25,735 nt of DNA from a virus (lineage: Duplodnaviria; Heunggongvirae; Uroviricota; Caudoviricetes): IMG/VR virus record IMGVR_UViG_2534681655_000008. One strand, given 5' to 3'. Under the pieces are notes generated by a model. The model searched no databases. It was not told where the DNA came from and worked only from the letters and a program-made list of their open reading frames with translations. Below, in pieces: positions 2,769 to 6,241 of the stretch. Made by a program: the position numbers and the translations under genes. Each line of letters starts with the position of its first letter. The first letter of the stretch is position 1.

Positions 2769-3029
2769 ATGCAATCACCATTACGAAATGTGCGTAAGGC
2801 GCACGGGCTTACTTTGCAGCATGTTGCTGCGGGCGTTCAGGTTAATCCAGCAACGCTGAGTCGTATTGAGAGACTGGAACAAATTCCATCTATCGATCTT
2901 GCAGAGCGTCTGGCCAATTTTTTTAAGGGAGAAATCAGCGAAATGCAGATTCTCTATCCTGCACGCTTTCAATCTAGTCAAAACCGGAATGAGTTAAAAC
3001 CACAGGAACAGGAGGTAAGCCGTGGGTAA
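2769..3029 (+). CDS. Cro-like HTH regulator (86 aa)
   Basis: GGAGG Shine-Dalgarno 4 nt before ATG 2769; HTH motif LTLQHVAAGVQVNPATLSRIE; divergent from repressor. Confidence 0.75.
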   Translation: MQSPLRNVRKAHGLTLQHVAAGVQVNPATLSRIERLEQIPSIDLAERLANFFKGEISEMQILYPARFQSSQNRNELKPQEQEVSRG

Positions 3030-3566
3030 GCATCACTGGAAAGTGGAAAAACAACCTGAGTGGTACGTGAAAGCTATCAGAAAAACTATCGCGGCATTGC
3101 CAGGTGGTTACGCTGAAGCTGCTGACTGGCTGGATGTAACAGAGAACGCATTATTTAACCGGCCGATGGCGATCAGTTTTTTCCGTTGGGATGGGCAATG
3201 GTTTTACAGCGTGCGGCTGGTACTCACCACATTGCGGATGCTGTCGCACAGTCTGCTGGTGGGGTGTTTGTATCACTTCCTGAAATTGAGGAAGTAGAGA
3301 ACGCCGATATAAACCAGCGCCTGCTGGAAGTCATCGAACAGATCGGGAGTTACTCAAAGCAGATTCGTTCGGCAATCGAAGACGGGGTAGTGGAGCCACA
3401 TGAGCAGACAGCAATTAATGATGAGTTGTATCTGTCGATTTCGAAGCTCCAGGAACATGCGGCACTGGTCTACAAAATTTTCTGCGTTCCAGAAAAGAGT
3501 GACGCCCGCGAGTGTGCAGCTCCGGGCGTCGTGGCGTTTTGTGTCTGTGGAGAAACTAACGCATGA
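3022..3566 (+). pseudogene. Early gene downstream of cro with an apparent -1 frameshift at a T6 tract (3177-3182); function unknown
   Basis: Strong AGGAGGT Shine-Dalgarno before GTG 3022; 5' part protein-like to about 3180 then degenerates, while the other frame opens at 3159 and runs protein-like to a stop overlapping the next start (ATGA at 3563). Confidence 0.45.
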
Positions 3567-4168: not shown

Positions 4169-4714
4169 ATGGCTACGATCCCAACCCTCACTCAACCTGA
4201 AATTGCCATCGTTGATGGTCAGGCTGTTACTTCATCCCTGGCTGTTGCCAACTTCTTCTCCAAACGTCATGACGATGTACTGAAAAAGATCCGCACGCTT
4301 GAATGCTCCGCATCATTCACTGCCCGCAATTTTTCGGTGAGTGATTACACCGATTGCACAGGCCGCAAACTACCTTGCTATCAAATAACCCGCGACGGCT
4401 TTGCGTTTCTTGCTATGGGTTTCACGGGTAAACGTGCTGCCCAGTTCAAAGAGGCATACATCAATGCCTTTAACCAGATGGAGAAACAGCTTTCAAGGCC
4501 CGCTGTACCGAGCGACGTTGCACATAACGCCAGCGTTCTCTGTTCCTACATTTCATCAATTCATCAGGTCTGGCTGCAGCAGCTTTATCCTATGTTGGCA
4601 AAAGCCGAATCTCCGCTGGCTGTTAGCTTATATGACTATATTAATGATGCTTCGGCGCTGGCCTGCCTCATAAATTTGTCGCTGAACCCTTCAGAGGTAA
4701 GGGGGCGCAAATGA
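4169..4714 (+). CDS. Phage regulatory protein Rha (antirepressor-like)
   Basis: ATG 4169 with AAGAGG Shine-Dalgarno; N-terminus MATIPTLTQPEIAIVDGQAVTSSLAVANFFSKRHDDVLKKIRTL...ITRDGFAFLAMGFTGKRAAQFKEAYINAFNQME is typical of the Rha family; the ORF track fuses it to 600 nt of dubious upstream frame. Confidence 0.7.
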   Translation: MATIPTLTQPEIAIVDGQAVTSSLAVANFFSKRHDDVLKKIRTLECSASFTARNFSVSDYTDCTGRKLPCYQITRDGFAFLAMGFTGKRAAQFKEAYINAFNQMEKQLSRPAVPSDVAHNASVLCSYISSIHQVWLQQLYPMLAKAESPLAVSLYDYINDASALACLINLSLNPSEVRGRK

Positions 4715-4935
4715 TCCGGAATATTTTCAAACGTTTTACCAATCAGACTTTCCGTTGTCCTCGTCCGGGTCAGTGGTACACCACGCCTGCAGGGCATGTT
4801 CTACGTGTTAGCCTGGTTGACCGTGAATGTCAGAAGGTGGTTTGTGAACCGCTGGGCCGTAATTACCGCGTCAGTATGCCGCTTATAGCCTTTCGCTCCA
4901 GAAAAAACATGAAGCATCTCGGAGGTGCAGCATGA
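4711..4935 (+). CDS. Small hypothetical protein (74 aa), start and stop overlap neighbouring genes
   Basis: ATGA overlap with rha stop and with the next start; several Cys residues; no recognisable family. Confidence 0.4.
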   Translation: MIRNIFKRFTNQTFRCPRPGQWYTTPAGHVLRVSLVDRECQKVVCEPLGRNYRVSMPLIAFRSRKNMKHLGGAA

Positions 4936-5750
4936 GTATGGAGCTGATGGTTAAAGCGATGAAAATTCGAGTGGGTAATCCATTGCGAAAACTGGTTCTG
5001 ATCAAGCTGGCTGATAATGCCAGCGATCAGGGTGAGTGCTGGCCCAGCTACCAGCATATTGCTGACCAGTGCGAGATTAGCAAACGTTCTGTGATGAATC
5101 ATATTGCGGCCCTTTGTGAGTCCGGGCTGGTAAAAAAAGTCACCCGGAAAGGTGAAAAAGGTAACTCAAGTAATATCTATCTCCTTCATCTGGATGGTGC
5201 AGGAGATTCACTAGGGGGTAGTGCAAATAATTCACTATCTGGTGCAGCAAATTCACCAGGTAGTGCAGGAGTTGCACCAGGGGGTAGTGCAGGAGATTCA
5301 CCCAGAACCAGTCACTCTTTTGAACCAGTCAAAGAACCAGTCAATGAACCAATAGCTGTTGGTGCATCAGTTGATGAGTCCGTGCGAGTTCGTTCAAACC
5401 GACCGGAATATTCTCCGGAGTTTGAGCAGGCATGGCTGGCATATCCCAAACGTGCTGGTGGCAATTCAAAATCTGCAGCCTTCAAAGCCTGGAAAGCCCG
5501 TTTGAATGAGGGGGTAAACCCCGAAACCATGCTGGAAGGTGTGAAACGCTATGCGGGCTGGGTATCTGCAATGGGTAACAGCGGCACACAATTTGTGAAA
5601 CAGGCTGTCACGTTCTTTGGTCCGGATCGTCATTTCGAAGAATCCTGGGAAGTTCCTGCGGTATCTGCAGCCAGACGTGAGGACCCGTACTTCAAATCCA
5701 GTTACGACAACGTGGACTACAGCCAGATCCCGGCAGGATTCAGGGGGTGA
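4932..5750 (+). CDS. Putative replication initiation / replisome organiser protein (N-terminal winged-helix domain, Gly/Ser-rich linker, C-terminal domain)
   Basis: GGAGGTG Shine-Dalgarno; N-terminus NPLRKLVLIKLADNASDQGECWPSYQHIADQCEISKRSVMNHIAALCESGLVKK resembles phage replication-protein HTH domains; position after the immunity region. Confidence 0.55.
   Translation: MSMELMVKAMKIRVGNPLRKLVLIKLADNASDQGECWPSYQHIADQCEISKRSVMNHIAALCESGLVKKVTRKGEKGNSSNIYLLHLDGAGDSLGGSANNSLSGAANSPGSAGVAPGGSAGDSPRTSHSFEPVKEPVNEPIAVGASVDESVRVRSNRPEYSPEFEQAWLAYPKRAGGNSKSAAFKAWKARLNEGVNPETMLEGVKRYAGWVSAMGNSGTQFVKQAVTFFGPDRHFEESWEVPAVSAARREDPYFKSSYDNVDYSQIPAGFRG
5196..5301 (+). repeat. Five iteron-like 16-bp direct repeats, consensus (A/G)GTGCAGGAGATTCAC, at 21-24 bp spacing (starts 5196, 5220, 5241, 5262, 5286); candidate replication origin inside the replication gene
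   Basis: Repeats read from sequence; followed by GAACCAGTCA direct repeats at 5305, 5322, 5334. Confidence 0.5.
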
Positions 5751-5752
5751 TC

Positions 5753-6241
5753 ATGAGTCTTTTGAATGACGTTCAGAAATTCATTGAAGCCCATCCGGGG
5801 TGTACTTCCGGAGACATTGCGGATGCTTTTGCAGGTTACTCACGGCAGCGCGTACTGCAGTCAGCAAGCAAGTTACGTCAGAGTGGGCGTGTGGCTCACC
5901 GTTGTGAAGGGGATACACGCAGACATTTCCCGCGCCTGACTGAGAGAGCGCAGGAGCCGGAACCACAACCAGTTCGTGAAACCAGACCTGTGCGCAATTT
6001 CTATGTCGGCACTAACGATCCCCGGGTGATTTTGTGCCTGACCCGCCAGGCTGAAGAACTGGAGTCAAGAGGCTTATACCGTCGTGCTGCAACCGTGTGG
6101 ATGGCGGCATTCCGTGAAAGCCACTCCCAGCCAGAACGAAACAATTTTCTGGCGCGTCGTGAGCGGTGCTTACGGAAAAGCAGCAAGCGCGCTGCATCGG
6201 GTGAAGAGTGGTATCTGTCAGGGAATTACGTGGGGGCTTAA
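5753..6241 (+). CDS. PerC-family-like transcriptional regulator (putative)
   Basis: C-terminal motif LTRQAEELESRGLYRRAATVWMAAF resembles the recalled PerC/Pch signature; ATG 5753 after a GGGGG ribosome-binding site. Confidence 0.4.
   Translation: MSLLNDVQKFIEAHPGCTSGDIADAFAGYSRQRVLQSASKLRQSGRVAHRCEGDTRRHFPRLTERAQEPEPQPVRETRPVRNFYVGTNDPRVILCLTRQAEELESRGLYRRAATVWMAAFRESHSQPERNNFLARRERCLRKSSKRAASGEEWYLSGNYVGA

Follow-up and report, generated by a model that had tools for sequence, protein, structure and literature searches.

A probable replication origin inside the winged-helix initiator gene of a lambdoid prophage

Several described replication systems resemble the one considered here. In phage lambda, dyad iterons lie inside the initiator gene O, and the annotated origin of phage P22 is likewise internal to an initiator gene. 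In the iteron plasmids (RK2 with oriV and TrfA, F, and R6K), an iteron array lies beside repeated 13-mers in the unwinding element, and the RK2 Rep protein also binds one strand of those short repeats; the Rep proteins of these plasmids are of the two-winged-helix Rep_3 type and their origins are intergenic. O-only replication modules, for example that of phage LLS, are found in 34 of 314 Enterobacteriales lambdoid phages, and the paper reporting them describes replication of this type as unstudied and not understood (PMC12315714; Genome Res 2025). The papers on Eru phages classify them by proteins, propose no origin, and say that nothing is known about Eru phage replication (PMC8951638; BMC Genomics 2022). 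We analyzed a stretch of 25,735 nucleotides from a virus of the Caudoviricetes (IMG/VR record IMGVR_UViG_2534681655_000008; this whole stretch is called the window below), in which a preliminary description had proposed iteron-like repeats within a putative replication initiator gene as a candidate origin. Our analysis makes it probable that positions 5141–5360 are the replication origin of a lambdoid prophage, situated inside its only replication gene. The gene and its repeats are arranged as follows.

4932–5750, plus strand: replication initiator gene, 272 amino acids (aa), HTH_36, PHROG 270, with no helicase or loader gene after it
5197–5211, no strand assigned: iteron 1, GTGCAGGAGATTCAC
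5221–5235, no strand assigned: iteron 2, GTGCAAATAATTCAC
5242–5256, no strand assigned: iteron 3, GTGCAGCAAATTCAC
5263–5277, no strand assigned: iteron 4, GTGCAGGAGTTGCAC, with perfectly palindromic arms (GTGCA/TGCAC) that match both strands
5287–5301, no strand assigned: iteron 5, GTGCAGGAGATTCAC, abutting the conserved 38-bp element
5301–5339, plus strand: invariant DNA element CCCAGAACCAGTCACTCTTTTGAACCAGTCAAAGAACC, adjoining the last iteron; putative constant part of the origin, for unwinding or loading, and junction for exchange of the C-terminal domain
5305–5355, plus strand: direct 10-mers GAACCAGTCA at 5305, 5322 and 5334 with a degenerate copy at 5346, spaced 17, 12 and 12 bp

All five 16-mers begin exactly where the preliminary description had placed them (5196, 5220, 5241, 5262 and 5286). 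Each contains a 15-mer core, GTGCA-N5-T(T/G)CAC, starting at 5197, 5221, 5242, 5263 and 5287, and the array extends over 5197–5301. The measured start-to-start spacing is 24, 21, 21 and 24 bp, in agreement with the periodicity of 21–24 bp claimed earlier; the codon phase is identical in all five copies, and the internal symmetry that had been described between GTGCA and T(T/G)CAC is present, being perfect in the arms of copy 4. Tandem Repeats Finder, the kind of check that had been suggested, independently reported periods of 21, 24 and 12 at 5217–5351. The pattern GTGCANNNNNTTCAC, allowing at most one mismatch, matched 11 times in the 25.7-kb window as compared to 2.39 ± 1.41 times in shuffled sequence, none of 100 shuffles reaching 11; the array supplies six of the 11 matches because the palindromic copy 4 is counted on both strands. 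The three 10-bp repeats named in the preliminary description are likewise exact copies of GAACCAGTCA, and these are its only exact occurrences in the window; the degenerate fourth copy at 5346 reads GAACCAATAG. The 10-mer is translated in two frames, the first copy as R-T-S-H and the later copies as E-P-V.

The window iterons encode a G-[AS]-A-x-x-S-[LP] peptide repeat in a single frame. Within it, Ser is encoded by AGT in the left arm and by TCA in the right arm, and the rare Leu codon CTA is used, in each case wherever the motif is thereby preserved. As a single strand, the iteron region folds solely through its own dyad symmetry. Among 69 near-identical alleles, two of the ten variable array sites fall in the arms, which is the expected direction although the sites are too few for significance.

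Relatives of the locus were sought in a scan of one genome per bacterial species, which gave 80 loci, 78 of them usable; a scan of viral contigs gave near-identical loci only, and the divergence among the relatives comes from the species-representative genomes. For iteron calling, the last copy served as the seed. The relatives come from Pseudomonas, Aeromonas, Shewanella, Marinomonas, Xenorhabdus, Erwinia, Vreelandella and other genera of the Gammaproteobacteria. The preliminary description had made its reading depend on conservation of the repeats in homologous replication genes, and all 78 loci carry 3–7 repeats at the same position, gene nucleotides ~264–440. Almost all spacings are 21 bp (110 cases), 24 bp (95), 22 bp (34) or 23 bp (29). 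In 34 of the 78 loci, one or more copies depart from the codon phase of the others, and the frame is regained where a spacing of 23 bp is succeeded by one of 22 bp (45 = 21 + 24). In one gene, two neighboring copies of GTGCAGGAGATTCAC yield different peptides, G-A-G-D-S and V-Q-E-I-H. The sequence logo of class A (107 copies from 21 non-redundant loci) shows arms GTG(C)A and T(G/T)CAC mostly at 1.7–2.0 bits and a center at about 1 bit or less, and the peptides encoded by this class are diverse (SAGAAP, VQQIHQ, GAPPAP, SESPAP and others). Over 59 non-redundant loci, the arrays contain 26.9 matches per kb to the arm pattern of the respective locus and the flanks 0.077 per kb, a difference of about 350-fold, and neither the window nor the 5-kb flanks of the relatives contained a further motif cluster. 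Taken together, the frame changes, the varied peptides, the confinement of the motif to the array, and the co-variation of the arms with the recognition helix described below indicate that selection acts on the repeat DNA rather than on the encoded peptide. Among E. coli and Shigella, the proteins are nearly the same apart from how many linker repeats they contain (about 1, 2, 5, 8 or 9 copies, for lengths of 242–302 aa). As a separate observation, the initiator genes of Erwinia rhapontici (L106) and Pseudomonas bharatica (L113) are frameshifted within the repeats; these may be defective prophages or non-triplet changes in copy number.

We also compared the iteron arms with the recognition helix of the encoded proteins. 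Four pairings of helix and half-site were found.

Helix S[KR]RSV[MI]xH: half-site GTGCA or GTGAA
Helix xRSTVKxH: half-site GGGC[AG]
Helix DRSTVRKH: half-site TAGGC
Helix SKSAVRNH: half-site TGCC[AG]

The distance between arms correlates with the distance between N-terminal domains (Mantel r = 0.40, a value reached in 0 of 2000 permutations that take no account of phylogeny) and hardly with the class of C-terminal domain (r = 0.09). The Eru5-type phage Stx2a_F403 fits the rule, its helix SRSTVKSH being accompanied by three perfect GGGGCAGGAGCTGCCCC palindromes spaced 21 and 24 bp apart. These comparisons indicate that the repeat arms follow the recognition helix and hardly the C-terminal domain.

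Directly after the last iteron, and at a fixed distance from it, all relatives carry an element with the consensus CCCAGAAYCAGTCACTCTnnTGAAYCAGTCAnnGAACC. Mean pairwise identity over its 39 nt in the same 59 non-redundant loci is 0.89, 0.88 and 0.86 at codon positions 1, 2 and 3, compared to 0.74, 0.82 and 0.44 for the N-terminal domain, in which even the best 13-codon window attains only 0.58 at third positions. The codons chosen within the element are also distinctive. In the 24 high-GC loci, AGA is used for its Arg in all 24 cases, compared to 1% in the remainder of these genes; in the high-GC loci its Glu codon is GAA in 47 of 47 cases (30% elsewhere) and its Ser codon is AGT or TCT in 96% (14% elsewhere). 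The element is the GC minimum of the gene throughout the family, lying 0.10–0.16 under the gene mean, and the iterons are enriched in GC. It was found in 139 phage records, from Vibrio, Aeromonas, Pseudomonas, Stenotrophomonas, Pectobacterium (ZF40), Aggregatibacter (S1249), Klebsiella, Salmonella and E. coli, and where the listed records are annotated it lies within genes labeled mostly as replication or helix-turn-helix (HTH) proteins. Between phages of Vibrio, Pseudomonas, Aggregatibacter and E. coli the element is ~90–100% identical, as opposed to only 40–70% for their N-terminal domains. At its right edge conservation is lost within 2 nt, and at least eight unrelated classes of C-terminal domain start there. 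The 38-bp element is thus constrained as DNA, synonymous sites included.

Single strands of the element showed no unusual or stable structure (z = −0.3 and +0.8), and a hairpin-type primosome assembly signal was rejected on this basis. We also rejected as a motif an extra copy of GAACCAGTCA in the wing-coding region (peptide LNQS) of class B and C relatives; the Ser codon there varies among TCC, TCG and TCA, and because its synonymous sites vary, this copy is considered a by-product of the peptide. One E. coli variant (P0040, 247 aa) has neither the last iteron nor any of the element with its RTSHSFEPV... peptide, and may be a defective prophage or represent a change in repeat number.

The identity of the protein is consistent with a role in initiation. 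What the preliminary description had called a putative replication initiator matches Pfam HTH_36 (PF13730; E = 1.8e-11, 44.1 bits against a cut-off of 25), with a weaker match to DnaD_N, and PHROG 270, labeled as a replication initiation protein (E = 1.8e-88). Within the PHROGs, residues 1–140 match 'replication initiation O-like' families, and residues 145–272 match the separate families 26426, 3729 and 1701, which carry 'replication protein' and 'DnaD-like helicase loader' labels. Two domains are predicted.

4932–5195, plus strand: N-terminal winged-helix DNA-binding domain, aa 1–88 (AlphaFold predicted local distance difference test score, pLDDT, 80–91; Foldseek)
5403–5747, plus strand: C-terminal helical domain, aa ~158–272, presumed to recruit the helicase (PHROGs; AlphaFold helices at 162–229, pLDDT 60–77)

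The AlphaFold model of the N-terminal domain has helices at residues 3–11, 17–28, 40–47 and 51–63 and strands at 67–73 and 79–85, which would place the recognition helix at about aa 50–63 and the wing at aa 67–85. Foldseek matched the N-terminal domain alone, to generic winged-helix proteins including DnaD-N (2v79), and in a profile search against the PDB aa 50–61 aligned with the recognition helix of winged-helix regulators of the GntR/FadR type. For the C-terminal domain we found no Pfam family, even at E = 1, and no relative by sequence in the PDB. Based on these sequence and model comparisons, the protein is assigned to the HTH_36/DnaD-N-like winged-helix initiators and lies outside the lambda O family. 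Residues 91–157 are predicted to be disordered (pLDDT 31–48). The iterons encode aa 89–124, inside this inter-domain linker, and the AlphaFold domain layout indicates that both the iterons and the 10-mers code for disordered linker; the Gly/Ser-rich linker to which the preliminary description had assigned the repeats was recovered as aa ~89–141, rich in Gly, Ser, Ala and Pro.

The first 48 residues (4932–5075; MSMELMVKAM..VGNPLRKLVLIKLADNA.D.GECWPSYQHIADQCE) contain 27 of the 33 invariant columns of the N-terminal domain and are conserved across genera far more than are the recognition helix and wing, this conservation being in part a matter of ascertainment since the peptide GECWPSYQ served as a search pattern. 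It suggests that this segment takes part in a second conserved interaction, the partner of which would be the invariant DNA element or a host protein.

The relatives differ in the genes that follow the initiator. The next gene is DnaC-like (IstB) and accompanied by DnaB in three loci (L117, L081 and L132), lambda P-like in five (L114, L085, L103, L128 and L112), DnaC-like alone in two (L094 and L131), and a primase-helicase gene in one (L160). Most relatives with the same class of C-terminal domain as the window have a DnaC-like gene followed by a DnaB-sized gene, a pair confirmed by Pfam for two of them. Classes of N-terminal domain and iteron are shuffled relative to classes of C-terminal domain. 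At one locus (L094), an N-terminal domain of the window type, class A iterons and the element are joined to a lambda-O-type C-terminal domain (37% identity to lambda O, E = 3e-22). Conversely, the 'O' protein of phage Stx2_499 (L162) has a C-terminal domain 68% identical to that of the window and a different N-terminal domain without a Pfam match; its gene carries at 1318–1495 its own dyad repeats (TTTCCCGAAATGGGG...) and then, at the equivalent place, four 12-bp tandem repeats (CAGAGAATACAA), and DnaC-like and helicase genes come after it. These two domain swaps indicate that the N-terminal domain together with the iterons behaves as an origin-specificity module, as in lambda O. The layout of iterons followed by short tandem repeats recurs in the unrelated initiator of Stx2_499.

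From the sequences we infer binding of the initiator to the iterons, the choice of the flank to be unwound, recruitment of a helicase, and origin activity itself. In the mechanism we propose, the 272-aa initiator would be expressed from the early rightward operon, and dimers of its N-terminal winged helix would bind the five dyad iterons on the same face of the helix. The spacing of about two turns would allow a wrapped nucleoprotein complex to form, similar to the O-some of lambda. This complex would destabilize the neighboring region, for which the 38-bp element with its GAACCAGTCA repeats on the right side is the best candidate. The C-terminal domain would then recruit the replicative helicase, presumably host DnaB (with DnaC) since this type of phage encodes neither a helicase nor a loader. 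Origin elements could be tolerated inside the gene because the stretch in which they lie encodes only disordered linker. The DNA to the left of the array is an alternative candidate for opening.

5141–5195, no strand assigned: least stable duplex near the gene, alternative candidate for unwinding (left flank of the array; 40-mer at −46 kcal/mol)

We consider the right-hand element the better unwinding candidate because it is conserved, contains the 10-mer repeats, coincides with the GC minimum, and keeps a constant distance to the last iteron. A more specific possibility, which we offer tentatively and regard as more doubtful than the origin itself, is that the 38-bp element with its two to four GAAYCAGTCA repeats may be a sequence-specific opening or helicase-loading signal of this gammaproteobacterial phage initiator family. 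It would be read by the conserved N-terminal half of the initiator or by a host factor, would replace the AT-rich tract of lambda, and would let solo phages load host DnaB without a phage loader. If true, this signal would explain the replication of a common and unstudied class of lambdoid and Stx prophages.

Every prediction of the iteron and origin reading that could be put to the sequences was borne out, which supports that reading. Several points weigh against it. By nearest-neighbor free energy of 40-mers, the least stable DNA near the gene lies on the left flank rather than to the right of the iterons (−46 kcal/mol at 5141–5195 versus a window mean of −56.1 ± 4.1 kcal/mol), although this segment also encodes the protein-constrained wing and is weak as evidence for unwinding. 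A strong AT-rich tract like that of lambda was sought to the right of the iterons and not found, positions 5290–5379 being only as low as 42–45% GC (20–27% in lambda). No DnaA boxes or GATC clusters were found near the array, which holds for lambda as well; in the window, both occur at chance frequency. The N-terminal domain is not homologous to lambda O, and the phage encodes no partner that would load a helicase. There are also points of method: the relatives were sought with peptide patterns from the same protein (GECWPSYQ and GTQ[FY]VKQA), the Mantel test ignores phylogeny, and all five window iterons are in one phase, so the argument from frame rests on the relatives.

The repeats might be a by-product of a low-complexity, slippage-prone Gly/Ser/Ala linker and have no function as DNA. 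The five window copies do encode a peptide repeat in one frame, the linker is disordered, and close relatives differ in copy number, as expected from slippage or unequal recombination. We nevertheless find this explanation barely credible: copies in other frames keep the DNA motif in 34 of the 78 relatives, conservation of the arms extends to all three codon positions even as the peptides vary, the repeats have dyad symmetry and a fixed 21/24-bp phasing, the arms co-vary with the recognition helix, and AGT, TCA and the rare CTA are chosen where they preserve the motif. A function of the synonymous constraint at the level of RNA, or in an overlapping gene (mRNA structure, a frameshift or pause, an internal promoter, or an alternative open reading frame, ORF), seems to us equally improbable. 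An ORF of 44 aa does exist in the +1 frame at 5221–5355, and in CTCTTTTGA a U-run precedes a −1-frame stop codon; the ORF, however, is not kept open where the iterons of relatives change phase, and the TTTT run sits at the variable positions of the element (offsets 18–19), so that a −1 frameshift at CTCTTTTGA was rejected. The single strands of the element are unstructured as noted above, and no Rfam family was found, the sole match being a miRNA model below threshold. A TTGAAC hexamer is not accompanied by a conserved −10 element, and a promoter scan gave nothing there; an internal promoter was rejected as well.

Two further explanations accept that the repeats or the element work as DNA. The array could be a set of winged-helix binding sites for autoregulation or copy control, by roadblock or handcuffing, with the true origin elsewhere. 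Plasmid iterons also mediate autorepression and handcuffing, sites within the initiator's own gene could block its transcription, and no strongly AT-rich tract adjoins the array. The motif cluster is unique, however, in the window and in the 5-kb flanks of relatives, which leaves no alternative binding array to serve an origin elsewhere, and the array is always found with the invariant element and sits at the domain junction, where lambda has annotated iterons and P22 an annotated rep_origin. We therefore consider an exclusively regulatory role unlikely, and note that regulatory and origin roles can coexist. Still less likely, in our estimation, is that the 38-bp element and perhaps the whole repeat region are kept mainly as a recombination joint for module swaps, with no role in initiation. 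The collapse of conservation within 2 nt at the right edge, where at least eight C-terminal domain classes begin, and the shuffling of N-terminal domain/iteron classes with C-terminal classes are what such a joint would show. Weak selection for future recombination, on the other hand, would not hold 38 bp at ~90–100% identity across genera; the internal 10-mers, read in two frames, resemble binding or unwinding motifs; and the unrelated initiator of Stx2_499 has a different 12-bp tandem repeat in the same place.

The window can be placed among known phage types by gene order, which runs cI (minus strand), cro, a cII-like gene, Rha/Ash, a 74-aa ORF, the initiator, a PerC-like gene, Dam, a LexA-like gene and RusA. 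The same order is found in Stx2a_WGPS2, the Eru6 reference Stx phage, whose ORF sizes equal or are close to those of the window (identical for Rha/Ash, the small ORF and the initiator) and which has the same 38-bp element. The window contains an Eru6-type replication region. Over this region the window shares 98% identity with mEp460, 1720a-02, and a number of Stx2c and Stx2k phages, and the initiator protein is 99.6% identical to SfV orf39. No helicase, loader or primase gene follows the initiator in the window, its place being taken by the PerC-like, Dam, LexA-like and RusA genes, and none is annotated anywhere in the complete genome of mEp460. The module is of the 'initiator-solo' or O-only type. 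The former term is associated with the review by Weigel and Seitz (2006).

Some neighboring features deserve mention. The gene directly after the initiator, at the place of lambda P (5747–6241), encodes a 164-aa PerC-domain protein (E = 7.8e-9), and its start overlaps the initiator stop. The 74-aa ORF before the initiator (4711–4935; PHROG 1153) overlaps the initiator start and has a counterpart of the same size and place in Stx2a_WGPS2; a 77-aa ORF precedes the unrelated Stx2_499 initiator, and a small ORF of this kind may be conserved alongside these replication genes. A 7-bp deletion at ~3161, relative to the intact 552-bp gene of Stx2a_WGPS2, divides the cII-like gene into two ORFs (3022–3297 and 3186–3566); the two genes otherwise align with 97% mean column identity, and this lysogeny-establishment gene of the prophage may be inactive. 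A 9-bp tandem repeat (TCAATGACA, 3.3 copies, 2322–2351) lies within the cI-like repressor gene on the opposite strand.

The array is common. It was found in 925 of 5,426 complete E. coli genomes (about one in six), almost always in the chromosome, as well as in the phages SfV, ST64B, cdtI and mEp460 and in Eru6-type Stx phages; Eru5 phages (Min27, phi24B) have different iterons. The initiator also occurs at 99% identity in phage-sized 'plasmid' records from E. coli and Salmonella, such as NZ_CP148393.1 (44.6 kb) and CP077666.1 (38.9 kb), and similar records from Klebsiella, Shewanella, Microbulbifer and Arsenophonus contain distant relatives (36–72% identity). These records could be excised replicating phage genomes or phage-plasmids. 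As they are mostly phage-sized, we rejected them as proof of autonomous plasmid replication.

Effective toxin production is reported to require replication of the Stx phage (PMC7466680). The present analysis supplies a precise map of the putative origin, a recognition code relating helix type to iteron arm, and an invariant DNA element, and the specificity of origin and initiator predicts which co-resident prophages would cross-activate or compete. We found no published description of these iterons or of the element, in a search that did not cover the SfV genome paper, so that an earlier prediction is possible; in full texts, the motif sequences matched unrelated primers only. The origin reading addresses the gap in knowledge of replication that is stated for Eru phages (PMC8951638) and for O-only lambdoid phages (PMC12315714).

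Comparison with the known systems leads back to lambda. The plasmids RK2, F and R6K share with the window the position of the array next to short direct repeats, and differ in that the window has a single winged helix, intragenic repeats and no Rep_3 match in Pfam. The O-only modules share a single initiator gene with no helicase or loader, and the available part of the paper on them covers gene content and describes no origin, iterons or conserved element (PMC12315714). The Eru5 type, represented by Stx2a_F403 and including Min27 and phi24B, has the same family of N-terminal domain, three GGGGCAGGAGCTGCCCC iterons, and the same 38-bp element. In P22, the rep_origin at 32840–32984 (NC_002371) also lies in the middle of an initiator gene (gene 18, 271 aa) and has iterons followed by an A+T-rich tract. 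The N-terminus of gp18, however, appears by eye to be of the lambda O type, gp18 shows no BLASTP similarity to the window protein (best E = 7.2), and P22 has its own DnaB-type helicase next door (gene 12). Positions 32913–32922 of P22 (L168) read GAATCAGTCA, the only GAAYCAGTCA in that genome (0.11 expected), right after the last iteron and inside the origin. We rejected this as a shared element; it resembles a degenerate half-iteron (GAATCGGTAAAAC), some P22-like contigs have GAAA instead, and it is probably a coincidence.

The likeness to lambda drawn in the preliminary description holds when the lambda layout is read directly, with four dyad iterons of 18 bp spaced 20, 24 and 23 bp apart in gene O as compared to five of 15 bp at 24, 21, 21 and 24 bp here. 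In both, the iterons lie in the initiator gene (at O nucleotides 349–433 in lambda) and encode a linker that connects the DNA-binding domain at the N-terminus to the partner-binding domain at the C-terminus, the gene belongs to the early rightward operon after cro and cII, a stretch of lower GC content follows the last iteron, and iteron number varies among relatives. The differences concern the protein and the flank. The N-terminal domain here is HTH_36 and has no match to PF04492 (Phage_rep_O), with a probability of only 3.7% in hhalign against lambda O; the C-terminal domain is of another class than that of lambda O; and the window has no P-type loader gene, the next gene being PerC-like. 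In place of the 40-bp tract of 20–27% GC, there is the invariant 38-bp element of GAACCAGTCA repeats at ~42% GC. The lambda iterons occupy three codon phases, those of the window one. The best reading of these likenesses and differences is that of a lambda-type origin carried in an initiator that is not of the lambda O family.

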